Below are positions 1-23,501 of a DNA stretch of 38,955 bases, piece after piece. The position numbers and the translations under genes were made by a program. How positions within the stretch are numbered: position 1 is the first letter of the stretch; each line of letters opens with the position of its first letter. The notes under the pieces were generated by a model, which did not search any database, was not told the origin of the DNA, and worked only from the letters and a program-made list of their open reading frames with translations. The DNA is from a virus. The stretch lies in the IMG/VR virus record IMGVR_UViG_3300001528_000417, positions 1-38,955 of that record; one strand, 5' to 3'.

Positions 1-75
1 TTTGCGTTCGTTTCCCGTATAAGGCTGCGCGCCATTTCAACAGCGGCTTCATACATTCGTTCATAGTCCGCCGTC
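1..75. repeat. Terminal direct repeat, copy 1 (identical to 38881..38955)
   Basis: Base-for-base identity read directly. The minus-strand ORF 38373..38936 continues in frame across the junction to an ATG at 93-95. Confidence 0.9.
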
Positions 76-82
76 TTGCTCT

Positions 83-565
83 CTACTCGTTCCATATCTT
101 TTCTATCTCCTCGTAAAACCGCCGCTTGACCTCTTCCATAACTTCTTCCCTTTTCAAAAACATTGAAGCGACAACGTGCGAATACGGCTCGACTTTACCG
201 ATTTTTCTGCCGAGCGAATCCTTTCCGCCCTTTTTCTTGCCCTTTTTCCCGGGACGTCCGAACTCAACGATAAGAACTCCGATATGCTCGCGGATAACCT
301 CGGTCGGGTAGCCAACATGAACGTGCCAGCCGCTTTTATCCTTGTATGTCCATAATTTCAGCCAGTCGGCGAACTGATGATATTTCGGATTCGGCGCGCT
401 CGCAAGCAGCCTTTTCTGTTCCTCAAGAAAGATCTGCCCCGCCTCGGCGACTACTTCCTTTGCGATACGGTCCTGAACCTTTTTGTCCATTTTGCGGAAT
501 TTCTCCTCAAGCGCCTGTATATCGCGCTGAAATCCGTCCAGTCCCAGATCTATATACCCGCTCAT
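83..565 (-). CDS. HK97 gp10-family head-tail/tail component protein
   Basis: 160 aa. The pattern ...HVHVGYP...IVEFGRPG...VEPYSH is typical of the gp10 family. ATGA overlap with the upstream ORF. Its position after the chaperone is atypical. Confidence 0.65.
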   Translation of the reverse strand: MSGYIDLGLDGFQRDIQALEEKFRKMDKKVQDRIAKEVVAEAGQIFLEEQKRLLASAPNPKYHQFADWLKLWTYKDKSGWHVHVGYPTEVIREHIGVLIVEFGRPGKKGKKKGGKDSLGRKIGKVEPYSHVVASMFLKREEVMEEVKRRFYEEIEKIWNE

Positions 566-1071
566 CAGTCATCATACCTCCGTATCTGTATCGGCGCTTT
601 CCTGTAGCCTTTTATAACCGCGTACCGCTCCCACCGCTCCGTTATTTCCCGAAGCGTCGCGCTCCAGAATTCTTCTTCGGGGCGGTGCATAATATCGCAG
701 TAAAGGCTCAGCATTGTTCCCGCGTTGGCTTTGTTTTCGCTCTTTTCGGTGTTCCCGTTCAGCGCGCTTAGCGGAAGCGCTTCGAGGACCGCGCGCTGTA
801 TAAGCGTTGTTACACTTTCGCTGCCGCCCGACATGAGCGCGTTGGTTATCTCGTCTTTCCGCTCATTTACCCCGAGCGTTTTAAGGCAGTCACGCAGTCC
901 CTCGGAAATGAACACCCGCGCTTTTGCCGCATTTTCGGAAATATCTCTTGTATCAAAGGGGCAAAGCCCCGATTTTTCTATATTTAAAAACGCCCTGTTA
1001 TCAAACCTAAACCAGAGCTTAGCTTCTCCGAACGGAAATTCCGTCCGCTTTTTCTCAATTTCGATAAACAT
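565..1071 (-). CDS. Tail assembly chaperone-like protein (gpG/gpT-like, apparently a single fused ORF)
   Basis: 168 aa immediately downstream of the major tail gene. SD GAGGTAG before the ATG. The call rests mostly on position. Confidence 0.5.
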   Translation of the reverse strand: MFIEIEKKRTEFPFGEAKLWFRFDNRAFLNIEKSGLCPFDTRDISENAAKARVFISEGLRDCLKTLGVNERKDEITNALMSGGSESVTTLIQRAVLEALPLSALNGNTEKSENKANAGTMLSLYCDIMHRPEEEFWSATLREITERWERYAVIKGYRKAPIQIRRYDD

Positions 1072-1092
1072 TTTCTACCTCATATATGTACT

Positions 1093-1120
1093 ATCCCCGC
1101 CGCCGCATTGACGGCGGGAT
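1093..1120 (-). promoter_or_regulatory. GC-rich stem-loop between the major tail and chaperone genes
   Basis: ATCCCGCCG-TCAATG-CGGCGG(C)GGGAT on the minus strand. No U-tract. Possible attenuator or mRNA stabiliser. Confidence 0.4.
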
Positions 1121-1134
1121 AATACAGCCTTGCC

Positions 1135-1791
1135 TTAGCCGCCCTGCTCCTCGCTGTCCGTGGGAGTTGTCGGGTAATGCCCTGCGGGAAGTCCGCCGAG
1201 CGCAGAACCGAACCACGCCGAAATAAGCGCCTTGCCGTCCTCTGTTGTGGGGTCAACACCGCGAAGAACGATAACGTCGTCGCCGTTCTTGATAAGCTGC
1301 TCATAGTCGCCGCTTATCTGAACAGACTGGAATTTCGCGCCGCTGTCGTCGGAAGTTTCAACGTTCTCCGCGCCCTCAGCGAACTTTACTTTCATGATTT
1401 TGTAAAGGTTCTTTGTGCCGTCCGCGCGGTCGGTCGAATATATCGCCATAACTGCGGGAACATAGTCGTCCTTGTTGTTAGTTACGGTCTTTGTGGTCGC
1501 GTCGTAGCTCTTTCCGAAAAGAAGCACCTCGTCCGAATTGTCGAGCGACGGCATTGTTATCTGAAGCTGTCCGCCCGCCTTTGCGACATAGCTTGCGACC
1601 GCCTGACCGCTTGCGTACATTTTGCTGCTGTTCATCTTCGGCGTGCGGCTTACCGAAATAGAAGCCTTGCTTATTTCAACAACGTCGCCATATGTGAGCG
1701 TGGAATCCGTGTCCGCCGCAAGCGGCGCGAATGCGAGGCGGTCGGTGCTGACCGACGGCGCTCTCGAAGTGTTTACAACTGTGTCTGCCAT
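1135..1791 (-). CDS. Major tail protein (phi13/TP901-like)
   Basis: 218 aa. Strong SD AAGGAGG. Sequence and position fit a siphovirus tail tube protein. Confidence 0.75.
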   Translation of the reverse strand: MADTVVNTSRAPSVSTDRLAFAPLAADTDSTLTYGDVVEISKASISVSRTPKMNSSKMYASGQAVASYVAKAGGQLQITMPSLDNSDEVLLFGKSYDATTKTVTNNKDDYVPAVMAIYSTDRADGTKNLYKIMKVKFAEGAENVETSDDSGAKFQSVQISGDYEQLIKNGDDVIVLRGVDPTTEDGKALISAWFGSALGGLPAGHYPTTPTDSEEQGG

Positions 1792-1794
1792 TTG

Positions 1795-2145
1795 TTATTC
1801 CTCCTTGTAGTAATTGCGGATAAAATCCATTACATAGTGCTTTTTGCAGGGGTACGGCGTGACCGTTCCCGCGTCCGTTCCGCTCTGATACTCATATCCG
1901 TGCGCGGCAAGCGTTTCGGCGATCTTCCGATAAAGCTCCCCGTCCGCCGAGGGGCTGAACACCGATACCGCCGCCCAAACGCTGAGCGCCTGCGGCTTTC
2001 CTGAAGCGTAGAAAACGGGCTTTTCGTGAAGCGTGTACGAGATATATTTCTCGGGTTCGTCGCTTTCGGAAAATTCGGGCATTCCGTGATAGTAAGGAAG
2101 TCCCGCCGCTTCGAGCGCCTCGTCAATATCCTTGTATACGTCCAT
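1795..2145 (-). CDS. Hypothetical head-tail joining / tail completion protein
   Basis: 116 aa. SD GGGGGT. Lies between the head-closure and major tail genes. Function inferred from position only. Confidence 0.4.
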   Translation of the reverse strand: MDVYKDIDEALEAAGLPYYHGMPEFSESDEPEKYISYTLHEKPVFYASGKPQALSVWAAVSVFSPSADGELYRKIAETLAAHGYEYQSGTDAGTVTPYPCKKHYVMDFIRNYYKEE

Positions 2146-2147
2146 AT

Positions 2148-2438
2148 TTACCCCCTAGAAAGTATCAGCTTTATGTGCAGGTCGTTATCGGTCCTGCCCG
2201 TGCTGCTGATTTTGTATTTCACGCCGCCATATTCGGCGTGGGTCTGTCTGCCGTATTCGCGGCGGTACATTACGGCTTGAAGCTCGGCGGAAACTCCCGC
2301 CGCCGCGGCAGCGTATTTTGTGGTAACTCCCATATCGGTCACCTCTGCCCATACGCGGGCTGCGTCCTGCTCTGTCGGCGGCGAAGTGCCTTTCCCGCTG
2401 ATTAGTGTGAAAAGCCGTAAACGGTTCTTGAATGCCAC
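2148..2438 (-). CDS. Head closure / head-tail adaptor protein (SPP1 gp16-like)
   Basis: Start moved to a GTG preceded by AGGAGG plus a 6-nt spacer (MAFKNRLRLF...). Family resemblance and position. Confidence 0.6.
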   Translation of the reverse strand: MAFKNRLRLFTLISGKGTSPPTEQDAARVWAEVTDMGVTTKYAAAAAGVSAELQAVMYRREYGRQTHAEYGGVKYKISSTGRTDNDLHIKLILSRG

Positions 2439-2448
2439 GGCGCACCTC

Positions 2449-2742
2449 CTACGCAAGCAAATTGCGGCTGTGCATATCGAGTATCTGCCGTGCCGTCGGG
2501 TTGAGCGTGTCGCGGCTGACCGTCATGCTGCGGTTGTTGTACATATCGTCAATGATACAGCAGCACGCAACGGTCATATCCTCGTGTTCGTCGAGCGTTT
2601 CCGCAGAAATTCCCGTATACCCGAGGATAAACGCCGTCGCGGCTGCCTTGTACATATCGACCAGCTTTGCGGTTTCTTCCGATTCATCGGAGATGCCGCT
2701 GTGCGCTCTGATAATATCAGCCGTCAGTTCGCTCAGCTTCAT
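2449..2742 (-). CDS. gp6-like head-tail connector protein
   Basis: 97 aa. The N-terminus MKLSELTADIIRAHSGISDESEE... is typical of gp6-like connectors. Lies downstream of the capsid gene. Confidence 0.65.
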   Translation of the reverse strand: MKLSELTADIIRAHSGISDESEETAKLVDMYKAAATAFILGYTGISAETLDEHEDMTVACCCIIDDMYNNRSMTVSRDTLNPTARQILDMHSRNLLA

Positions 2743-2950
2743 TTTTCTTACCCCTTGCGGACTTTTTTACAGGCTTCGCCGCTTCCTTTTCGGGTTCGGC
2801 TGCCGCTTCCTGCGCGACTTCCTCGGCGGGGACGATATGCCCCGCTTTCACAAGGTCAGCCGCAACATTTTCGTCCGATATTTCGAGAACTTCCCCCATT
2901 CTCGCCGAAACGGGAACACCGCAGAAGCTCGTTACTGCTCTATACTTCAT
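2717..2950 (-). CDS. Small hypothetical protein following the capsid gene
   Basis: 77 aa. SD GGAAAGGAG. Ala/Glu/Lys-rich C-terminus. Confidence 0.5.
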   Translation of the reverse strand: MKYRAVTSFCGVPVSARMGEVLEISDENVAADLVKAGHIVPAEEVAQEAAAEPEKEAAKPVKKSARGKKNEAERTDG

Positions 2951-2965
2951 GTGAAGCTCCTTTCC

Positions 2966-4129
2966 TTAGCCGCTTGCCGCCATTTTAAGAACGGCGAGGC
3001 GCTGCGCGTCCATTATCTTGCTGTCAAGCTCGATCCAGCCCACGATACCTACCGCGTGCTGCGTTGCGTACTTTTCCTTGAGGACTTCGATAGAAAGTTC
3101 CTCGCGGATATTTACCGCAAGTCCGCTGTAATCGCCGTAAAGGATAGGCTTTGCGTCCGCCGCGATTTCGGGCATATTGTCCGAGATATACACGGGCTTT
3201 CCGAGCAGACGATACGGGAATTCCTGCGTTACGTCGTCCTGGAGCAGGTATCTGTTATTGCTGTCCTTGAGCGTCTTTATCGCCGTGAAAGTCTTTGCGC
3301 TCATTGTCCAGCAAGCGTTGTGCTGATATGCCTGCTTAATGCTTGCCTGGAGCTTGATAAGCTCGTCGGTTGTTATCGCGGTTTTCGCTGCGGCTGTAAT
3401 GCCCGTTCCCGTAGAAAGCGCGCCCGTGCATTTGCTTGTCGTGCCGTTGAGCAGTTCCTTTTCGATGAAAATAGCGAACTTCTCCGCCATTACGTCGGTG
3501 ACAAATGAAACGAGCTGAACGTCCGCGCTGTTGAGCAGGGTCTTTCCGATGAGCGTGAGCGAACCGACAAGGTAGCCCGTAAGGTCAACCGAGGTAAATT
3601 CACCCGCGTTCGCGGTAAGCTCCGTAAAGTCGGAAGAATAGCCGACTGTCACGTCGTTGCTGTGGGTCGCGTCGGGACCGTATACGGGTATCTTGAGCGT
3701 TCCCTTTACATGGAAAATCGTCGCGCCGCTGAGAATGGGGCAAAGGTCGGTCGCCTTTTTTATCACCATCTGCGCGATAGTTGTCGGAACGATTGCCCCG
3801 TTCGCGCTCATAGTGAAGTTCTGTTCGTTCGCGCGTGTTTCGGGTGCTTTAAGCGTGCGGATATACTGCGCAAACTCTCTGATTTCCGATTCCTCGGTCG
3901 TTTCCTTTTTGGGTTCAGCTGCCGCCGCAGCGGGGACAGGTTCGGTAAAATCGCGCATTTCGCTGAGAGAAGCGAGCGTATCGTTGATACTTACGATTTC
4001 CGCCTTGATTTCGTCATAGCGCTTCTTCTCGTCCTCGTTAAAGGCACGTTCCTCCGTCTGGATTGTTGCCGTGAGCTTACCGAGTTCAGCGACAAGCTCG
4101 TTCTTTCTTTCCGTTAATTTCTTGTGCAT
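2966..4129 (-). CDS. Major capsid protein, HK97 family
   Basis: 387 aa. N-terminal coiled-coil delta-like region followed by an HK97-like body. Directly follows the prohead protease. SD AAAGGAG. Confidence 0.85.
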   Translation of the reverse strand: MHKKLTERKNELVAELGKLTATIQTEERAFNEDEKKRYDEIKAEIVSINDTLASLSEMRDFTEPVPAAAAAEPKKETTEESEIREFAQYIRTLKAPETRANEQNFTMSANGAIVPTTIAQMVIKKATDLCPILSGATIFHVKGTLKIPVYGPDATHSNDVTVGYSSDFTELTANAGEFTSVDLTGYLVGSLTLIGKTLLNSADVQLVSFVTDVMAEKFAIFIEKELLNGTTSKCTGALSTGTGITAAAKTAITTDELIKLQASIKQAYQHNACWTMSAKTFTAIKTLKDSNNRYLLQDDVTQEFPYRLLGKPVYISDNMPEIAADAKPILYGDYSGLAVNIREELSIEVLKEKYATQHAVGIVGWIELDSKIMDAQRLAVLKMAASG

Positions 4130-4141
4130 ATGTTACTCCTT

Positions 4142-4753
4142 TCATAAGGCAAGAATTTCTGCCTCGTGTTTGTAAAATTCCCAGGGTCTTTTTTTCTCGG
4201 ACGGTTCATTTCCGTCGGGCGCTTCGCCCTCGGGGTCAACTCCGCTGCGCAGTTCAAGGACCTCGCTTTCCTCGCCGCGAAACTCCACGGACGCGACCGA
4301 CGTTCCGATATATGCGGGCGTTTTGTCGAGTATCGACACTTCGCGCAGGTCGATTTCTTCGAGATTGCGGCGGCTGGTGTTCGGGTTGACTTCCTCCCAT
4401 GTGTCGCGCTTTCCGAAGAAGCCGAAGCTCCACCCGCGAAGCTCGCCGCGCCCCGCCTTGTCCGCAACTTCCGCGTCGCGGATAACCGCCCTTGCCCAAA
4501 GCCCGACACCGTCCTCATGCAGCTCAAGCGCGCCGTCTTTCGTGCTTCCGAGGATACGGCGGTGGTTGAACCGCAGCTCTATGTTGTCGTTTTTCTTCAG
4601 CGCTGCCGCGAACGTCCCGGGTCGGATACGTTCATAGAACGGCTTTGTCGCTTCCGAACACATTGACGGAGGAAGGCAGCGGCTGTCGCGGTCTACCGCG
4701 TTGACATACCCGCTTATGACGACCTCGCCCGCGCTCCTCACTTCGATTTTCAT
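4142..4753 (-). CDS. Prohead maturation protease, HK97 family
   Basis: Start set to ATG 4753 (MKIEVRSAG...) with SD GGGGGTGA. The longer track ORF runs into the repeat element. Family resemblance and position. Confidence 0.8.
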   Translation of the reverse strand: MKIEVRSAGEVVISGYVNAVDRDSRCLPPSMCSEATKPFYERIRPGTFAAALKKNDNIELRFNHRRILGSTKDGALELHEDGVGLWARAVIRDAEVADKAGRGELRGWSFGFFGKRDTWEEVNPNTSRRNLEEIDLREVSILDKTPAYIGTSVASVEFRGEESEVLELRSGVDPEGEAPDGNEPSEKKRPWEFYKHEAEILAL

Positions 4754-4771
4754 TTCATCACCCCCTTTCAA

Positions 4772-4829
4772 GGCATAAAAATAGCGCCTTGCACGCGAAT
4801 GCAAAACGCTGAATTTATTAAATTTTTGC
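4772..4829 (-). repeat. Conserved hairpin/U-tract/RBS element, copy A (hairpin 4783..4810)
   Basis: Minus strand reads AGCGTTTTGCA-TTCGCG-TGCAAGGCGCT followed by ATTTTTATG. Homologous to copies B-E. Confidence 0.8.
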
Positions 4830-4835
4830 ATAAGA

Positions 4836-17272: not shown

Positions 17273-17620
17273 ATGTTTAAGGAAAATTTAAAGAGACTAA
17301 GGGCACAAAAGGGTATTACTCAGGAAAATTTTGCTAAGGAACTTAATGTTACCAAAGGCGCAGTTGCTATGTGGGAAACAGGAAAAAGAATACCTGATAT
17401 AGATATGCTGAAGACGATTGCCGCTTTCTATGGTGTAACTGTTGATAAACTTGTTGACGACAAGCCAAGCGAAAACAATACAGCTAGCGAAACAACAAAA
17501 GATGATATAAAATTTGCTCTGTTCGGCACAACAGATGTTGACGATGAGCTTTATGATGATGTAAAAAAACTTGCACAAACACTATATATATCAAAGCAAA
17601 ATCGAAAGGAGAAGAAATGA
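17273..17620 (+). CDS. cI-like XRE-family repressor
   Basis: 115 aa. HTH GITQENFAKELNVTKGAVAMWETG. Followed by an ImmA-type peptidase gene with ATGA overlap. Confidence 0.8.
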   Translation: MFKENLKRLRAQKGITQENFAKELNVTKGAVAMWETGKRIPDIDMLKTIAAFYGVTVDKLVDDKPSENNTASETTKDDIKFALFGTTDVDDELYDDVKKLAQTLYISKQNRKEKK

Positions 17621-18039
17621 CAAACTTGGAGGACTTGTGCTGCATTGCAGAACAGGAAAATATATGCATAATTGATATGCATATAAAAAGAGCCGACGTC
17701 TCGGCAATATCTGTATGCGATGATGAGGGCGATTGCATAATCGCTATTGATTCCAGAAAAACAAAAAACGTCCCAGACTGCAAAGTGAAAACTGCGCATG
17801 AATTGGGACATTGTATTAAAGGAGCGTTTTACAACCGCTATAGCAACCTTGACGTTATAAGCAAACATGAATACCAAGCGGATAAATGGGCAGTGCAAAA
17901 ACTCATGCCGAGCGAGGAACTTTTGCAGGCAGTTCAAAACGGCTGTGTCGAAGTCTGGGAACTTGCGGAATATTTTGACGTAACAGAAGATTTCGTGCGC
18001 CGTGCGTGTGAGATATATAGAGCTATGGGCATTTTATAA
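17617..18039 (+). CDS. immA: ImmA/IrrE-family metallopeptidase (anti-repressor protease)
   Basis: 140 aa. HELGH zinc motif. Coupled to the repressor gene. Confidence 0.8.
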   Translation: MTNLEDLCCIAEQENICIIDMHIKRADVSAISVCDDEGDCIIAIDSRKTKNVPDCKVKTAHELGHCIKGAFYNRYSNLDVISKHEYQADKWAVQKLMPSEELLQAVQNGCVEVWELAEYFDVTEDFVRRACEIYRAMGIL

Positions 18040-18060
18040 GGTGTGAGGATATAACAACCT

Positions 18061-18645
18061 ATGAATACAAAAAAAGCCACGCTTGTGGTATCTGTTATTT
18101 TTATAGTCCTTTTCTCAATAGTTGCATTGTACGCTTTTTTCGAGGACGGAATATTGATTTCAAATCCCGAATATTGGTTAACGCTTGCTTTTTTCCTTTT
18201 CATGTCCGCTTTATTCTTATACTTCTTTTTTAAAGAACGTCAAGCGGAGAAAAGACGCGAGCAAGAAGAGAAAAAACGCTGGGCTGAATTCAGAAAGAAA
18301 TACGATTTTGATTTTCTATTTACGAATGTTGCCGGAGTAACTTTCGGCGGTGCGCAGCAAGTTCTTCCTAATTTATGCGCAGGAATGGATTTGCAATTTA
18401 TAAGAGAACCGGATAATCAATATGATACTAATGCTATACGGGTTGAATGCTGCGGTAGTGTGCTCGGACACATTAAAGCCGATGTTGCCGCCAAGTTAGC
18501 CCCTAAAATTGATAGCGGAAAAGCTATAATAAAAGGCAATATTGCCGAAATAACGGGTGGCTTTGCCCCTGGCGTAAAATATGGCTGTAAAATGCAAATT
18601 GTAATTTATACAAAAAAGCAGGAGGATATAACAACATGGAAGTAA
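18061..18645 (+). CDS. Membrane-anchored HIRAN-domain protein
   Basis: 194 aa. Two N-terminal hydrophobic helices, a charged linker, then HIRAN-like VAGVTFGGAQ...LQFIREPDNQYDTNAIRV...LGHIKADVAAKLAPKIDSG. Confidence 0.7.
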   Translation: MNTKKATLVVSVIFIVLFSIVALYAFFEDGILISNPEYWLTLAFFLFMSALFLYFFFKERQAEKRREQEEKKRWAEFRKKYDFDFLFTNVAGVTFGGAQQVLPNLCAGMDLQFIREPDNQYDTNAIRVECCGSVLGHIKADVAAKLAPKIDSGKAIIKGNIAEITGGFAPGVKYGCKMQIVIYTKKQEDITTWK

Positions 18646-19766
18646 TAAGAAGCCGCTGCAATTTCACTTGTTTCGATTTTGAAACGACGGGACTAAGCAT
18701 ACATACCGCCGAAGTAATTGAAATAGGCGCTGTTAAAGTAAGGAATTGGCAAGTAGTCGAACGTTTCAGCACATTTGTAAAACCTGTTGAGCCTATCTCG
18801 AACTTGATAACCAAATTAACAGGAATTACAAACGAAGATGTTGAACTTGCGCCGACAATTTCAGAAATTCTTCCTTCGTTTATGCAATTTATAGAGGGCG
18901 AATTTCTTTTAGGCCACAATATTGATCGTTATGATATTCCGATACTCAAAAGGATTGTTGCCGAAAACTTTTCTGTTGACAATGAATATGATGATACTTT
19001 AGAGTTGTCAAAGGTTATCGTTCCGGAGCTTCCCTCTCACAGTCTTGGAGCCTTGTGTAATTATTACGGAATTAAAAACGCAGAAGCTCACAGAGCTGTG
19101 AGTGATGCCGAAGCAACCTCAGATGTATACAAGTGCATTATGCTTGGCAAAAAGGGTAACATTGAAAAGGTGGAAAAGAAAAGCAAAACCTGTTACCATC
19201 GTCCCGTTTTTGCTAAACAAACACAGTCGCTCATTACGCTCAAGGGAATTCTTACAGGCATTACCTGCGATAACGTCCTTAGTAGAGATGAAATATTTTA
19301 TTTGAAAAACTGGCTTGACGATAATTGCGATTTAGAGGGAAACTATCCTTTTGATGTCGTTTTCGCAGAAGTGAACAACGCGCTTGCTGACGGAATACTG
19401 GAACAGCATGAACTTGACCGTATGCTGAGTATCTTCAAAGAATTTTTAAATCCCGTTGAAACCAAATCAGAGCATTCGGATAAAATAGACTTTACAAATA
19501 AAACGGTATGCTTATCGGGAGAGTTTGAAACAGGCTCCAAAAACGAAGTCGGCGAAAAAATTGCCGCTCTTGGCGCTACAATAAATCAGACCGTTACTAA
19601 GGCGGTTGATTTTCTAGTAGTCGGAGAAAAAGGCAGCGAAGCATGGTACTGCAGAAACTATGGAACAAAAATTAAAAAGGCTTTAGAAATGCAGGGCAAA
19701 GGGCATCATATTCAAATTCTTAGGGAATGTGAAGTTCTCAACGTTCGGGAGGTCGAAAATGTCTGA
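18636..19766 (+). CDS. DEDDh (DnaQ-like) 3'-5' exonuclease with C-terminal BRCT domain
   Basis: 376 aa. Motifs FDFETTG, GHNI.RYD and AHRAVSDA. C-terminal TVCLSGEF...VDFLVVGEKGS...KIKKA is BRCT-like. 10-nt overlap with the HIRAN gene. Confidence 0.75.
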   Translation: MEVIRSRCNFTCFDFETTGLSIHTAEVIEIGAVKVRNWQVVERFSTFVKPVEPISNLITKLTGITNEDVELAPTISEILPSFMQFIEGEFLLGHNIDRYDIPILKRIVAENFSVDNEYDDTLELSKVIVPELPSHSLGALCNYYGIKNAEAHRAVSDAEATSDVYKCIMLGKKGNIEKVEKKSKTCYHRPVFAKQTQSLITLKGILTGITCDNVLSRDEIFYLKNWLDDNCDLEGNYPFDVVFAEVNNALADGILEQHELDRMLSIFKEFLNPVETKSEHSDKIDFTNKTVCLSGEFETGSKNEVGEKIAALGATINQTVTKAVDFLVVGEKGSEAWYCRNYGTKIKKALEMQGKGHHIQILRECEVLNVREVENV

Positions 19767-20295
19767 ACAGCTTACTCTTGAAGAACTTGACACTCCAAAG
19801 CCGAGCCGCCCGAAAAATCCACACAATGAAAAATCGCCCGAATGGCATAATATCAGCCAAATGTTCAAAATAAAAGCGGCGGAATATGCCGCAGAATGCG
19901 GAATTGAAGAAAGCCATATTTCAAGCGATACAAACAAGGATAACTCCGTTTCGTTCAAAATCGACGGAAAGCTGATTGCGAAGCTTCTTCCGAACCCTGA
20001 TGTCGGCATAGCGTTTCCTGTCGGACTGTTTAATAAGTATGCGAAGGATTGCTCCTTTTCGCCGATCAAGTCCCCCGAGGGTTACGGAAAAATTTCGACG
20101 GATTCAATAAACTTAGCGCTGGATATGCTGAAAAAAGCCATTGCCGACTACGTTCCGTCGCACACATTCGGCTGTTGCAGCCGATACAAAGAGTGTTCGC
20201 ACGCTAAAAAGTGCATTCACCCCGATTTGTTTTACGCCAAAGGCTGTTATTACAGAAAAAATCTTGAAGCAGACAGAATATTTTATAAAGAGTAA
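19759..20295 (+). CDS. Hypothetical protein with Cys-rich C-terminus
   Basis: Start set to MSEQLTLEEL (8-nt overlap with the exonuclease stop). C-terminus FGCCSRYKECSHAKKCIHPD...GCYY. Confidence 0.55.
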   Translation: MSEQLTLEELDTPKPSRPKNPHNEKSPEWHNISQMFKIKAAEYAAECGIEESHISSDTNKDNSVSFKIDGKLIAKLLPNPDVGIAFPVGLFNKYAKDCSFSPIKSPEGYGKISTDSINLALDMLKKAIADYVPSHTFGCCSRYKECSHAKKCIHPDLFYAKGCYYRKNLEADRIFYKE

Positions 20296-20299
20296 TGCC

Positions 20300-20464
20300 A
20301 TGAACCTAGAAAAGAAACTTTGCAAACAGATCCCGACGCCCGAGGAAGTCAAAGAGGAGCGTTTGAAAAGCGCCGCCGAATTTCAGAAGCGGGCGGAAAA
20401 GGAGTTTCAAAAGCGCGGGAAAAGTAAAAATATAAGAATAACTCAATTAAAACAGAAAAAATAA
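20300..20464 (+). CDS. Small Lys-rich hypothetical protein
   Basis: 54 aa: MNLEKKLCKQIPTPEEVKEERLKSAAEFQKRAEKEFQKRGKSKNIRITQLKQKK. Followed by nested hairpins. Confidence 0.4.
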   Translation: MNLEKKLCKQIPTPEEVKEERLKSAAEFQKRAEKEFQKRGKSKNIRITQLKQKK

Positions 20465-20591
20465 AGCCCCTCACCTGCGCCAACAGGTGAAGAGCTTCGG
20501 GAGATGTGTGTGTACATCTAGGCATCTTTGATTATAGCACACCTCCCGGATTTTTGCAACCTTTTTTTACAAAAAACGGAGGTGTTTTTTT

Positions 20592-21689
20592 ATGATTTGT
20601 AAGACTTGCGGCGGAGAAATCCCCGACTTATCCCTTTATTGCCTGCATTGCGGTGCGGCTCAGCTCGCGGGAAAGTCGCCGAAAGCTAAAAGTTCGGCCA
20701 AGCGGCGCGGAAACGGAATGGGAAGCGTGTACAAGCTCCCCAATGGAAAATGGGCGTGCGAAAAGACGTGGTATATTGCGGGAAACCGCAAGACTGTGCG
20801 AAAAAAGGGGCTTGCCACGCGCAAAGAAGCGACCGAATATCTCGCCAACCTCACACCCGAGCGCAAGCGTTCAATGACGATTGCGGAAGCATACGCGGCG
20901 TTACAGCCAACCTTTGAAAAGCTATCCGAAAAACGGCAGAAAACGTACCAGTCGGCGTACAAACACTTGATTGACGTGGAAATGATTCCGCTCGAAACGT
21001 TCAGCCTTGCAGACCTGCAGAACATAATTGACGACGTAGACGGCGGATTTTATTCAAAGCGCTATGTAAAGGACCTGCTGAGCAAGATTTTTTCATACGC
21101 GTATATCGACGGAAAGGTTGAACGCAATGTTGTTCCGTACATTGTCCTTCCCCCGAATGTTCCGCAGAAAGAAATTACCATTTTTACCCGCGAGGAAATC
21201 GCGCGGCTGTGGCTGCTCTGGGGAGCTGGGGAGACGTTCGCGGGCTATCTGCTGATCCTTATTTTTTGTGGACTCCGCACAGGCGAGCTGTGGAATATCC
21301 GCTGCGCAAACATCAACTTTGCCGAACATATCATGTTTGGCGGAATTAAAACGACAAAGGGCAAAGCCGCGCCTATATTTATGATAAGCAAGATTGAGCC
21401 TGTTGTTGCCTACATGGCTGAGCGAAGCCGCACAACGCTTTATCCCGGAAACGCAACGGCATTTTACCGCGAGTGGCAAGAGTTTAAGCGCAAGCACAAG
21501 CTCCGCGACGAGTTACAACCCTACTCCGCGCGCCACACCTGCGCGACGCTGCTGTCAAAGGCGGGGCTACCCGAAGCCGTGATAATGGATATTACACGCC
21601 ACACATCTTACGACACGACGTTAAAATATACGCACATTGACACGCTGAGCGTGCTCACGGGAATGGAAAAAGCTCTTTCGGCGGTATAA
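20592..21689 (+). CDS. int: Tyrosine integrase with N-terminal zinc ribbon
   Basis: 365 aa. CxxC-x12-CxxC at the N-terminus. C-terminal catalytic pattern ...ARHTCATLL...TRHTSYDTTLKYTH. Confidence 0.85.
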   Translation: MICKTCGGEIPDLSLYCLHCGAAQLAGKSPKAKSSAKRRGNGMGSVYKLPNGKWACEKTWYIAGNRKTVRKKGLATRKEATEYLANLTPERKRSMTIAEAYAALQPTFEKLSEKRQKTYQSAYKHLIDVEMIPLETFSLADLQNIIDDVDGGFYSKRYVKDLLSKIFSYAYIDGKVERNVVPYIVLPPNVPQKEITIFTREEIARLWLLWGAGETFAGYLLILIFCGLRTGELWNIRCANINFAEHIMFGGIKTTKGKAAPIFMISKIEPVVAYMAERSRTTLYPGNATAFYREWQEFKRKHKLRDELQPYSARHTCATLLSKAGLPEAVIMDITRHTSYDTTLKYTHIDTLSVLTGMEKALSAV

Positions 21690-21694
21690 TTTCG

Positions 21695-21715
21695 GGGTGT
21701 AATAAGGGTGTAATA
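21695..21715 (+). repeat. Direct repeats GGGTGTAATA x2 (candidate arm-type integrase sites, P arm)
   Basis: Copies at 21695..21704 and 21706..21715. Related copies lie at 21903..21912 and 21915..21924 on the other side of the core. Confidence 0.5.
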
Positions 21716-21772
21716 GACTGCATTTTTACAGCATTTTGCAGTAATTGTCCGCCGAGCGAACGCATAAACGAA

Positions 21773-21817
21773 AACCCCGCAAATGGCTTAACAAAGCTAT
21801 TTGCGGGGTTTATTTTC
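21773..21817 (+). terminator. Rho-independent terminator downstream of int
   Basis: AACCCCGCAAAT-14-nt loop-ATTTGCGGGGTT followed by TATTTTC. Confidence 0.7.
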
Positions 21818-22043: not shown

Positions 22044-22072
22044 TTGACATTATGCCAATATTGATATATAAT
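22044..22072 (+). promoter_or_regulatory. Consensus promoter with palindromic operators (copy 1 of the duplicated region 21991..22118)
   Basis: TTGACA-17 nt-TATAAT. CAATATTGAT half-palindromes at 22012..22023 and 22054..22065, the second inside the spacer. Confidence 0.75.
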
Positions 22073-22125
22073 AGAGACATCAAAGGGAAAGGAAAATCCC
22101 GAAAACCAGAAAGGATAAAAAAATT

Positions 22126-22383
22126 ATGTTTAGAACTAATTACGGAACAGGTGCTGGTAATGTCGACGAAATCGAAACTCTCGAAAAGGCAATGGAACTC
22201 GCAGACGAAGACGCCAGCTATACTCAGACTGACATTGAGATACTCGATGAAAACAACAAGCTCGTTGCCATCCGCCGCTGGTACGGCGTAGAATTTAATC
22301 CCGACGATTACGAAAACGGCGAGGATGCAGATGTAATCAGCTACGGGAAATTCGGATTTTACGACGAGTGGCAGACACTTTAA
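22126..22383 (+). CDS. Small acidic protein (anti-defence candidate)
   Basis: 85 aa, Asp/Glu-rich. RBS AGAAAGGA. Confidence 0.6.
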   Translation: MFRTNYGTGAGNVDEIETLEKAMELADEDASYTQTDIEILDENNKLVAIRRWYGVEFNPDDYENGEDADVISYGKFGFYDEWQTL

Positions 22384-22439
22384 GAACTACGATTACGGGG
22401 CGGTAAGCCGCCCCACAAAAATAAGGAGGATTTAAAATC

Positions 22440-22709
22440 ATGGGAAGAATTACTAGCGCAAGAAAAGAAGAAGGCGAAATGCTCATCCGCAGAATGAGCG
22501 AAAAGGCTCAGGAAGCCTACTACGGAACTGATCCCCTCGCGGTTTATGCCGACGATAGAAACAGCACAGAGGATATAGACCTTGTCGCCGTCGATGGGGC
22601 TAAGAATATGAATTTTGATGAACTGGAAAGATACCTCGAAGATTGGCAGGACGCTATGGGTGAACAGCTTCGCGAGGACGAAGAAGACGAGGAGGACGAA
22701 GAGATCTAA
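22440..22709 (+). CDS. Small acidic protein (anti-defence candidate)
   Basis: 89 aa. C-terminal EDEEDEEDEEI. SD AAGGAGGA. Confidence 0.6.
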   Translation: MGRITSARKEEGEMLIRRMSEKAQEAYYGTDPLAVYADDRNSTEDIDLVAVDGAKNMNFDELERYLEDWQDAMGEQLREDEEDEEDEEI

Positions 22710-22713
22710 CGGT

Positions 22714-23022
22714 ATGAAGAATAATTTAGCCCTAATCCGCCACGCTCGCGGATTAACACAAAAAGAGCTGGCTGCCAGAATTGGGCTGCCGCAAACATGG
22801 GTTTCGCGCTGTGAATCAGGCGTTTTGTCGGTCGAAAATATCACTCTAAAAAATGCCGCTGCTCTCGCCAAAGCCCTTGACTGTCGCATCGAAGATTTTC
22901 TCGGTGATCCGCGAGAAGAATTCATTCTTCTCGCGGCGGCGGGAAAACAAGCCGAAGATCTTGAACGCGCGATCGCTGAAGGCGATATTGATGGAATTAT
23001 AAATAACGGGCTCGCCCGTTAG
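22714..23022 (+). CDS. XRE-family HTH regulator (Aca-like position)
   Basis: Start set to MKNNLALIRHARGLTQKELAARIGLPQTWVSRCESG. Last gene of the acidic-protein operon. Confidence 0.7.
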   Translation: MKNNLALIRHARGLTQKELAARIGLPQTWVSRCESGVLSVENITLKNAAALAKALDCRIEDFLGDPREEFILLAAAGKQAEDLERAIAEGDIDGIINNGLAR

Positions 23023-23027
23023 AAAAA

Positions 23028-23051
23028 GCTCGGAGCAATCCGAGCCTTTTT
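23028..23051 (+). terminator. Rho-independent terminator
   Basis: GCTCGGA-GCAA-TCCGAGC followed by CTTTTTG. Confidence 0.7.
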
Positions 23052-23134
23052 GTATATATCGCGTGTTTTGTTGTGCCGTTTTTGTACACATTTTACAAAA
23101 ATATCAATATTGATATATTTTTCTCGGGAAGTCT

Positions 23135-23163
23135 TTGACAATATATCAATATTGATATATAAT
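23135..23163 (+). promoter_or_regulatory. Consensus promoter with palindromic operators (copy 2 of the duplicated region 23082..23208)
   Basis: TTGACA-17 nt-TATAAT. Perfect palindrome ATCAATATTGAT at 23103..23114 and 23145..23156. Confidence 0.75.
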
Positions 23164-23213
23164 AGAGACATCAAAGGGAAAGGAAAATCCCAAAAACCAG
23201 AAAGGTATACGAA

Positions 23214-23501
23214 ATGAAAAACACTTATTTTATCACCTACGCATCGCTCAATAGTGAAGGCTACGCAATTCTTTACTGCAAGGAAACCAATCAAATCTTT
23301 ATGGAAGACGGCGGCGACGGAAGTTCGAGCGAATGCGAAGATGTGGAAACATTGGTAGCGTACGCGACACAGCTTTTTGGAGCTGGTTTTTACGACCTTG
23401 AAGATATTGTAGCCGAAATTGTACATAGCGGATCTGAACTCACCGAGGACGACTGCTACGGAAGCGGCGCGGCTGCTTGGATTGCGGCTCAGGAAGAATA
23501 A
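23214..23501 (+). CDS. Small acidic protein (anti-defence candidate)
   Basis: 95 aa, acidic. Same 5' UTR and RBS context as 22126..22383. Confidence 0.6.
   Translation: MKNTYFITYASLNSEGYAILYCKETNQIFMEDGGDGSSSECEDVETLVAYATQLFGAGFYDLEDIVAEIVHSGSELTEDDCYGSGAAAWIAAQEE

Follow-up and report, generated by a model that had tools for sequence, protein, structure and literature searches.

A recurrent exonuclease-plus-partner module and a lineage-specific HIRAN gene as cargo in the lysogeny operon of a temperate phage

Prophage exclusion genes occupy the slot between the immunity repressor and the integrase in several temperate phages, including lactococcal Sie2009, Streptococcus thermophilus Ltp, and old of P2, the last of which encodes a prophage-expressed nuclease of the ATPase-Toprim type, not a DEDDh enzyme, that excludes other phages. 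DEDDh exonucleases with a function in defense have been described as TONDOs, ISG20-like enzymes that restrict RNA phages by trimming 3′ untranslated regions (10.64898/2026.06.30.735675), and mycobacterial DnaQ, in which an exonuclease and a BRCT domain are combined with a clamp-binding motif at the C-terminus, is an alternative proofreader that binds the clamp (10.1101/2023.10.24.563508). Here we describe the lysogeny operon of a viral stretch of 38,955 nucleotides (IMG/VR record IMGVR_UViG_3300001528_000417, the whole of which is referred to as the window), in which genes for a membrane-anchored HIRAN protein (g1), a DEDDh exonuclease-BRCT protein (g2), and a Cys-rich protein (g3) lie between an immunity repressor with its ImmA partner and a tyrosine integrase. 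An earlier note, made from the sequence alone, had treated the three as one system in which the HIRAN protein senses an incoming free DNA 3′ end and recruits the exonuclease. Comparison with other loci indicates that the operon instead combines a widespread exonuclease-plus-partner module, g2 and g3, with a lineage-specific add-on, g1.

The nearest published concept is that of the TONDOs, DEDDh defense exonucleases that need auxiliary domains or open reading frames (ORFs) (10.64898/2026.06.30.735675). Like g2 and g3, TONDOs involve DEDDh exonucleases of prophages and defense islands, and their function requires a variable auxiliary domain or an adjacent small ORF. TONDOs, however, were selected as homologues of ISG20, an RNA exonuclease, whereas the structures nearest to g2 are DNA proofreaders, the PolC exonuclease, DnaQ, and epsilon, and the auxiliary parts also differ, being a BRCT domain and g3 in the window. 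In mycobacterial DnaQ as in g2, the DEDDh exonuclease is N-terminal and the BRCT domain comes after it, and a QxxLF-type motif like that of DnaQ is found here on the partner g3, in a subset of members only. Unlike DnaQ, g2 contains a further, helical middle domain of ~90 residues, does not itself carry a clamp-binding motif, and has as partner, separate or in the same chain, a Cys5-His domain that is missing from DnaQ; it is also encoded in prophage lysogeny modules and defense islands, whereas dnaQ is a core gene. Escherichia coli Pol III epsilon with theta (or P1 Hot) also pairs a proofreading-type DEDDh enzyme with a small accessory protein, of which a phage-encoded version exists, and PDB entry 2ido is among the structural matches of g2; but theta and Hot are three-helix bundles unrelated to g3, with its alpha/beta domain and Cys cluster, and g2 does not have the polymerase-binding tail of epsilon. 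Sie2009, Ltp, and old share genomic slot and expression logic with the window, and g1 is small and membrane-anchored like the Sie proteins, but there is no sequence relationship, and Sie and Ltp have no HIRAN domain.

Among PADLOC models, PDC-S48, a single-gene DEDDh candidate for defense, matches the exonuclease and part of the next region (2.9e-31 for g2, 4.4e-43 for the homologue at locus L004; L numbers denote loci outside the window), but g2 covers just profile positions 5-256 of 411, a second PDC-S48 model is matched over the exonuclease only, and the PDC-S48 model has neither the BRCT end nor the g3 partner. The earlier note had not recognized the combination as a named defense system, and the PADLOC scan agrees, giving partial matches and no complete named system. 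The searchable literature yielded no description of a DEDDh exonuclease-BRCT plus g3 module, its terms being met only in passing, and no paper mentioning PDC-S48.

All sequence features named in the earlier note are present at its coordinates (Table 1), including the two hydrophobic segments and HIRAN domain of g1, the DnaQ-like exonuclease, helical middle region, and BRCT domain of g2, the Cys-rich string of g3 (residues 137-165), and the gene overlaps, which measure 10 nucleotides for g1/g2 and 8 nucleotides for g2/g3. The operon layout, with the repressor and ImmA upstream and int downstream, is that of a 'moron' slot in a lysogeny module, as the note had recognized. The interval it delimited, 18061-20464, holds the three genes that it described and, at its end, one ORF that it did not, g4, a Lys-rich ORF of uncertain status that is present solely in the near-identical L010 cassette and not in L001, L039, or the other loci.

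The pair formed by g2 and g3 recurs in many phages. A word-indexed search with g3 retrieved 23 relatives, and on their contigs a DEDDh exonuclease adjoins g3, in both orders; an immunity repressor and a recombinase flank the two in every case. The gene orders include helix-turn-helix (HTH) gene, exonuclease-BRCT, g3, HicAB, and serine recombinase (L001); exonuclease, g3, and serine recombinase (L002 and L003); and, in a complete prophage (L004/L005), S24 repressor, g3, exonuclease-BRCT, a 286-residue zinc-ribbon membrane protein, and tyrosine integrase. The zinc-ribbon protein (L004:9698-10558) has two transmembrane (TM) segments. The species-representative genomes of GTDB yielded 21 loci, from Ruminococcus, other Clostridia, Lachnospiraceae, Alistipes, Draconibacterium, Syntrophales, and Anaeroplasmataceae, among others. 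At 15 of the 21, g3 is adjacent or fused to an exonuclease; at the remaining six, g3 follows LigA (three loci), adjoins a BRCT-only ORF (one), is at a locus truncated by a contig end (one), or has neither neighbor (one). In IMG/VR viral contigs, where a single-sequence pattern scan with g3 gave no match and an alignment-based scan retrieved the loci, the pair or a fusion is present at 24 of 29 loci, usually in the order repressor (XRE plus ImmA, or S24), exonuclease, g3, and integrase (tyrosine or serine). The succession of repressor, exonuclease (with or without g3), and tyrosine or serine integrase was found in every exonuclease-anchored look-up and at most g3-anchored loci, and a Pfam search of 103 neighbors in the genome loci identified 16 HTH_3 proteins, five serine recombinases, and five tyrosine integrases. 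The pair is located almost always between the immunity repressor and the integrase, in temperate phages whose hosts are gut Clostridia. Adjacency in both orders and many natural fusions show g2 and g3 to be one predicted functional unit, and gene neighborhoods show the pair to be recurrent cargo of the repressor-integrase slot that is also carried in defense islands. Toxin-antitoxin-type pairs occupy the same slot (HicA/HicB, L001:2590-3211; DUF4160/DUF2442, L012:1445-2159), and the slot is therefore a general hotspot for conflict genes.

In Clostridium genomes (L007-L009 and L020), a 408-residue exonuclease-BRCT protein and a 184-residue g3 relative directly precede McrBC genes, the next genes after the pair being in each case those for a short McrB-lid protein and McrC, which hints that the pair and McrBC may travel together. 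The other flanks are variable and contain HsdR, a NERD protein, an AAA_11/12 helicase, a reverse transcriptase-trypsin protein, a CAP12/TIR protein, or a 912-residue protein beside one with a faint adenosine-deaminase match. A different association is observed at the three LigA loci, where full-length g3 genes have an NAD-dependent DNA ligase as neighbor. At L022 (9581-10174), the g3 relative overlaps the stop codon of the housekeeping ligA in a rubrerythrin-pcrA-ligA operon, while at L029 (9644-10177) and L030 (6214-6747), it overlaps the 3′ end of ligA in the order nrdD, nrdG, HD protein, ligA, g3, and uvrA. This arrangement suggests that the family member in ligA operons is a partner protein of LigA and, as judged from gene order, the g3 domain generally comes after enzymes that carry a BRCT domain and work on nicks and 3′ ends.

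The sequence and predicted structure of g2 are those of an exonuclease that looks active and directed at DNA. The exonuclease domain scores 124.8 bits against PF00929 (cut-off 24), which places it in the DEDDh superfamily, and residues D14, E16, D100, H152, and D157 are invariant in 45 homologues. The AlphaFold2 model, with a predicted local distance difference test (pLDDT) score of 85.6, consists of the exonuclease, a disordered linker, a middle domain of four to five helices, and the BRCT domain. In Foldseek searches, the closest structures are the PolC exonuclease, DnaQ, and epsilon (E ~1e-12 to 1e-13), as well as ExoX; the Thermotoga maritima PolC exonuclease, with 35-37% identity to the g2 exonuclease, is followed by DnaQ domains, Pol III epsilon, and ExoX, and among the top 50 matches listed, DNA proofreaders rank ahead of ERI1, RNase T, and other RNA exonucleases. 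The BRCT domain is supported by a Pfam score of 30.5 bits (cut-off 21.3) and by a beta-alpha-beta-beta-alpha unit in the model at residues 290-368; its conserved positions include an S/T-G pair (S294-G295) and a Lys (K345/K347), which by sequence are candidates for phosphate binding. In family databases, g2 matches phrog_192 and phrog_3989, and TIGR00573, a generic subfamily domain, is the only NCBIfam model over its cut-off (105 bits versus 71.5). g2 does not classify as a Pol III epsilon-type proofreading subunit: the NCBIfam equivalogs for epsilon, PolC, and DnaQ score far under their cut-offs, the C-terminus is a BRCT domain, and the gene lies in a prophage operon. The middle domain has no Pfam family even at E ≤ 10. 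At least 1,995 homologues of g2 were found at E ≤ 1e-20 among 8,000 candidates scored, and 13 of the 120 best are fusions of 512-593 residues with the order exonuclease, middle domain, BRCT, and g3.

The AlphaFold2 model of g3 (pLDDT 82, and >90 at residues 30-130) shows a helix, a beta-rich alpha/beta domain, and three short helices that bear the Cys motif. Foldseek gives weak matches to E. coli YjbR (2fki; E 2e-3, probability 1.0, target-normalized template-modelling (TM) score 0.52) and to the C-terminal DNA-binding domain of T4 MotA (E ~0.13, TM-score 0.48-0.49), a 'double-wing' likeness that suggests that the modelled alpha/beta domain may bind DNA. The C-terminal motif reads F-G-C-C-x5-C-S-x4-C-x-H-x8-C-x-Y-R-x-N-L-E-x-G-x-I-F-Y, and across 178 members the five Cys and the Ser are each conserved at 99% and the His at 96%; from this pattern we infer a metal site (Zn or Fe-S). 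The g3 domain family appears to be new. No PADLOC, PHROGs, or NCBIfam family matches the whole g3 or g4 proteins, and no Pfam family matches g4 or g3 (as whole protein, N-domain, and C-motif separately) even at E ≤ 10; a g3 profile against all PDB sequences gave noise only (E > 1), and Foldseek against the BFVD viral structures gave nothing under E = 1e-2. A separate family of viral-contig proteins carries the Cys5-His motif at the N-terminus of chains of 217-347 residues, the rest of which has no Pfam match (L057:4677-5330, L065:5995-7038, L066:6004-6747, L067:1707-1868); two of its members end in the clamp-binding-like sequences QISFFD or QVSIFEF.

A HMMER profile search of 1.84 billion representatives places 1,303 clusters in the g3 family at E ≤ 1e-3 and 960 at E ≤ 1e-10 (clusters at 50% identity). 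Among the best 143 new representatives, 82 are stand-alone proteins of ~160-230 residues and ~55 are exonuclease fusions (exonuclease-g3, exonuclease-BRCT-g3, g3-exonuclease, and g3-exonuclease-BRCT), and all but one of the representatives longer than 300 residues contain an exonuclease or BRCT domain. We also considered g3 as an antitoxin or inhibitor of g2 and rejected it, ~40% of the family being single-polypeptide exonuclease fusions in both orders. A terminal or linker QL[SD]LF-type pentapeptide is the canonical bacterial beta-clamp-binding motif, DnaN being bound also by hexapeptides of the QLxLxL type, and a motif of the pentapeptide kind recurs near the N-terminus of g3 proteins. The strict form, Q[LMIV]x[LFMI]F within the first 12 residues, is present in 13 of 110 stand-alone members versus 0.05 expected, and a looser form in 33 of 110. 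The window g3 has the degenerate QLTLEE, its close homologues QLTLEL or QLTFEL, and distant ones QLSLF, QMSLF, or QLSFF at residues 3-8. The motif could instead be a docking peptide for a separate exonuclease, and it is found in only 2 of 67 g3-exonuclease fusions.

The explanation that we favor, with slightly less than even confidence, is that the operon carries two independent prophage-expressed cargo units, of which the pair is a DNA-end- or nick-directed exonuclease for exclusion or defense. Both units would be co-transcribed with the repressor and ImmA from a promoter at ~17.2 kb. In the first unit, g2 would be a proofreading-type DEDDh 3′-5′ DNA exonuclease and g3 its dedicated accessory subunit, contributing possibly a DNA-binding alpha/beta domain and a metal-binding Cys5-His knuckle, and the two would act as one enzyme. 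Guided by the BRCT and g3 parts, the nuclease would work at DNA ends, nicks, or primer termini, where it would resect the 3′ ends of linear or replicating foreign DNA, such as that of a superinfecting phage or of rolling-circle intermediates; circular host and prophage DNA would offer few 3′ ends, and the outcome would be exclusion or defense for the lysogen. Consistent with this explanation, the pair turns up in the slot in dozens of phages, whose repressors and integrases differ, its Clostridium copies lie in variable islands beside McrBC, g2 partially matches PDC-S48, and the neighbors in the slot include the toxin-antitoxin-type pairs of L001 and L012. The exclusion or defense role put forward in the earlier note is therefore plausible, the grounds for it being slot recurrence and the Clostridium islands.

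Several points weigh against a defensive role. The arguments for it are drawn only from position and neighborhood, the PDC-S48 match spans just the N-terminal 60% of the profile, and the nuclease's discrimination of self from non-self is something that we infer. The exonuclease also occurs without g3, in the orders S24 repressor, exonuclease, and integrase (L071); XRE, ImmA, exonuclease, a 50-residue ORF, and serine recombinase (L074); and, at L035, with an N-terminal zinc ribbon on the exonuclease, followed by membrane proteins; g3 is therefore accessory, not obligatory. In addition, the translational coupling of g3 relatives to the housekeeping ligA points to a general DNA-metabolism role of the g3 domain, and the QLSLF-like start of a subset of g3 proteins fits replication or repair equally.

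The last two points belong to the principal alternative, which we regard as possible but unlikely, namely that the module is a clamp-linked repair or proofreading accessory: a mobile, trans-acting 3′-5′ exonuclease that works at primer termini or nicks marked by the sliding clamp, with g3 supplying a clamp or DNA tether for BRCT enzymes, in the manner of mycobacterial DnaQ. The benefit would be fidelity of host or phage replication, nick processing, or tuning of the single-stranded DNA signal that triggers induction. The position of g3 relatives directly after the BRCT-carrying LigA, in both pcrA-ligA and ligA-uvrA operons, would be expected from such a function, as would the excess of the clamp-type motif in stand-alone g3 proteins, the clamp-binding-like ends of two members of the family with the N-terminal Cys motif, and the similarity of the exonuclease domain to the PolC, DnaQ, and epsilon proofreaders, and mycobacterial DnaQ provides a precedent for the combination of exonuclease, BRCT domain, and clamp-binding motif (10.1101/2023.10.24.563508). 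However, the motif of the window g3 is degenerate, the near absence of the motif from fusions fits an exonuclease-docking peptide equally, and overwhelmingly, members of the family lie between repressor and integrase in many unrelated phages, or in defense islands, a placement typical of conflict genes, not of fidelity factors. A broader proposal, speculative and rather unlikely in our estimate, would make g3 a shared targeting subunit for BRCT-bearing enzymes of DNA ends and nicks, serving LigA in some bacteria and the mobile exonuclease in temperate phages, where in lysogens it would license attack on the 3′ termini, clamp-loaded or free, of foreign DNA that invades or replicates.

The second unit of the favored explanation is g1. 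Its HIRAN domain scores 54.5 bits against PF08797 (cut-off 24.7), and positive charge is concentrated in the N-terminal tail and after the second hydrophobic segment, which is followed by a basic linker; by this positive-inside pattern, the HIRAN domain is predicted to be cytoplasmic. HIRAN domains bind 3′-OH DNA ends, and DEDDh enzymes digest from 3′ ends. That g1, g2, and g3 form one system, with the membrane HIRAN protein sensing an incoming free 3′ end and recruiting or activating the exonuclease, is therefore biochemically reasonable, and the 10-nucleotide overlap of the co-transcribed g1 and g2, as well as the presence of the same four-gene cassette beside another type of repressor (L010/L011, with S24 in place of XRE plus ImmA), agrees with it; the comparative data, nonetheless, make it improbable. 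Only five relatives of the HIRAN gene were found. The cassettes of the window and of L010 share 95-100% identity from ~18400 up to the end of the contig and only 63-84% in the 5′ TM-coding part of g1, and upstream they are unrelated, so that window and L010/L011, on this alignment, represent one lineage with a putative mosaic breakpoint inside g1 near 18400, and not independent conservation. At L012, the same HIRAN domain, in a version with one TM segment, stands by itself behind the repressor and is followed by the DUF4160/DUF2442 pair and a serine recombinase, and L013 has a HIRAN-only ORF after the repressor, with no exonuclease and no g3. Conversely, HIRAN was not detected at ~50 other pair loci with a narrow hidden Markov model built from six close sequences, backed by the Pfam count on 103 neighbors (families with at least two hits listed), a combination that a single divergent HIRAN could escape. 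The trio thus failed the test of co-conservation, the pair recurring without HIRAN, and the proposal of HIRAN as a sensor for the exonuclease found no support in the comparative data.

On this distribution, g1 is best described as a cargo gene independent of g2 and g3. It would be a membrane-tethered cytoplasmic HIRAN protein, a separate sie-like cargo placed before the pair in this lineage, that may act alone on entering DNA; cooperation with the pair is possible and is not required by the comparative data. PADLOC matches g1 to PDC-M03B, the HIRAN-containing component of a multi-gene candidate, at 3e-6 over positions 130-201 of 250 only, and no other PDC-M03 component was found among the seven operon proteins scanned, from repressor to integrase. 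In other phages, small, unrelated membrane proteins often flank the exonuclease in a g1-like position without a HIRAN domain, such as the zinc-ribbon protein of L004, a TM protein with a Thr-rich region (L035:9289-10336) and a 58-residue single-TM protein (L047:1395-1571).

The junction of g1 and g2 points in the same direction. The earlier note had pointed out an identical 14-nucleotide ribosome-binding-site (RBS) context of g1 and g2, and GAGGATATAACAAC indeed has exactly two copies in the window, at 18045 and 18622, versus a mean of 0.02 in shuffled sequences. The leader GGAGGATATAACAA is also present before the stand-alone HIRAN gene at L012 and before the exonuclease at L039, and a diverged form of it precedes the L001 exonuclease; in this phage group, the 14-mer is thus a predicted leader that is conserved in front of whichever cargo gene comes first behind the repressor, and we rejected it as an operon-specific regulatory repeat. 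The second copy encodes the g1 tail ..QEDITT.., and the HIRAN protein ends in ...HSEVSEKFS where it stands alone and in ...QEDITTWK, the translated g2 leader, in the window. The overlap accordingly arises because g1 reads through into the g2 leader, and the duplicated 14-mer and the 10-nucleotide overlap are therefore scars of cassette juxtaposition. These features point to two cassettes placed side by side with no designed coupling.

The region is AT-rich, as the earlier note had stated, with a GC content of 0.38-0.42 across 17-20 kb versus ~0.50-0.55 in most of the contig. The low-GC stretch takes in the repressor and ImmA, which are equally AT-rich, and other patches of low GC (0.39-0.43) occur at 29000-30500, 32000-34000, and 37500-38500; low GC therefore singles out no cargo genes, and AT-richness was rejected as a sign that the cargo was acquired separately.

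A final alternative, that the module serves the phage by destroying DNA-based defense molecules (e.g., retron msDNA or oligodeoxynucleotide signals) or by processing the phage's own DNA at integration, excision, or induction, is quite improbable: the module is phage-borne and always beside an integrase, whatever its family, and small oligonucleotides, of DNA or RNA, are within the substrate range of DEDDh enzymes, but the module lies in the lysogeny operon with the repressor and not among early lytic genes, it is also found in chromosomal defense islands without a surrounding phage, tyrosine and serine integrases need no exonuclease, and the BRCT domain and DNA-binding-like partner argue for long DNA substrates.

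The window as a whole is the genome of a temperate siphovirus, with recognizable structural and replication genes. The contig ends separate the major head protein and adjoining head genes (1-4831) from the terminase and portal (33.4-36.7 kb, within 33431-38955), and the window is probably a complete, circularly permuted genome; around the circle, the genes follow the unusual order head, terminase, portal, and tape measure. A blastn search in distant mode of 50,697 GenBank phage records gave no match to 17200-21700. The lysogeny block is encoded on the + strand and flanked by genes on the − strand. The + strand promoter-like site with an extended −10 TG is the likely promoter of the repressor-ImmA-g1-g2-g3-g4 operon, the genes of which are tightly packed or overlapping. 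The hairpin between g4 and int is a possible operon end or bidirectional terminator, as judged from its sequence; a promoter-like site on the − strand (20559-20531) lies near it, and the boundary between cargo and int may be under antisense or bidirectional control. Past the terminator-like hairpin that follows int, a perfect-consensus promoter (22044-22072) would drive several small + strand ORFs; this region (22044-23501), which separates int from the lysis genes, may be another moron block.

Table 1. Positions of genes, domains, and sequence elements in the window
Feature	Position	Strand	Details
Major head protein	2966-4129		
Replication initiator	12548-13426		
Cro-like HTH gene, divergent	16889-17083	-	ORF list
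Promoter-like site facing the cro-like HTH gene	17117-17145	-	12/12 consensus
Promoter-like site, extended -10 TG	17194-17222	+	11/12 consensus
XRE/CI-type HTH immunity repressor	17273-17620	+	115 residues; Pfam HTH_3 6e-17
ImmA/IrrE-type M78 metalloprotease, anti-repressor partner	17617-18039	+	140 residues; HELGH motif; Pfam Peptidase_M78 6e-8
Leader/RBS copy 1, GAGGATATAACAAC	18045-18058	+	Upstream of g1
g1, membrane-anchored HIRAN protein	18061-18645	+	194 residues
g1 hydrophobic segment 1	18079-18141	+	Residues ~7-27
g1 hydrophobic segment 2	18178-18231	+	Residues ~40-57
g1 HIRAN domain	18316-18558	+	Residues 86-166; PF08797 1e-14
Leader/RBS copy 2, GAGGATATAACAAC	18622-18635	+	Upstream of g2, within the 3′ end of g1
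g2, exonuclease-BRCT protein	18636-19766	+	376 residues; overlaps g1
g2 exonuclease domain	18669-19130	+	Residues 12-165; RNase_T PF00929 6e-36
g2 helical middle domain	19215-19466	+	Residues 194-277; AlphaFold2 model; preceded by disordered linker
g2 BRCT domain	19488-19727	+	Residues 285-364; PF00533 4.5e-7
g3, Cys-rich partner	19759-20295	+	178 residues counted from ATG; overlaps g2
g3 N-terminal peptide MSEQLTLEE	g3 start	+	Degenerate QL[ST][LF]F motif
g3 alpha/beta domain	19837-20148	+	Residues 27-130; AlphaFold2 model
g3 Cys5-His motif	20167-20286	+	Residues 137-176; motif conservation
g4, Lys-rich ORF	20300-20464	+	54 residues; starts 4 nucleotides past the g3 stop
Hairpin between g4 and int	20463-20498		16 bp, GC-rich; T-run after hairpin on - strand only
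Tyrosine integrase (int), N-terminal zinc ribbon	20592-21689	+	Own RBS; Pfam Phage_integrase 1.5e-14; phrog_1 2.8e-39
Terminator-like hairpin after int	21772-21811	+	18-bp stem
Small ORF	22126-22383	+	85 residues
Small ORF, very acidic	22440-22709	+	89 residues
Small ORF, HTH-like by eye	22615-23022	+	135 residues
Small ORF	23214-23501	+	95 residues
Tape measure	28206-31904		
Portal	33431-35020		
Large terminase	35031-36725		

Taken as nuclease-based prophage cargo, the widespread exonuclease-plus-partner module is probably an uncharacterized anti-phage or DNA-end-processing module, and the HIRAN domain of the add-on gene, which in the classical sie slot is found joined to different membrane anchors, is a concrete candidate for exclusion by DNA-end capture. 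If the role is defense or exclusion, g2 and g3 would rank among the most common cargo of lysogeny modules in phages of gut Clostridia, the known nuclease-based immune mechanisms would gain an exonuclease of the proofreading type, directed by its BRCT domain and a new metal-binding domain, and the finding would help to explain phage-phage competition in the gut. If g3 is a shared targeting subunit, lysogens would possess a new strategy of immunity, assembled from components of the replisome. If instead the module is a clamp-linked repair factor, hosts would routinely receive a DNA-end-processing enzyme from their phages, and a partner of bacterial LigA would have been identified.

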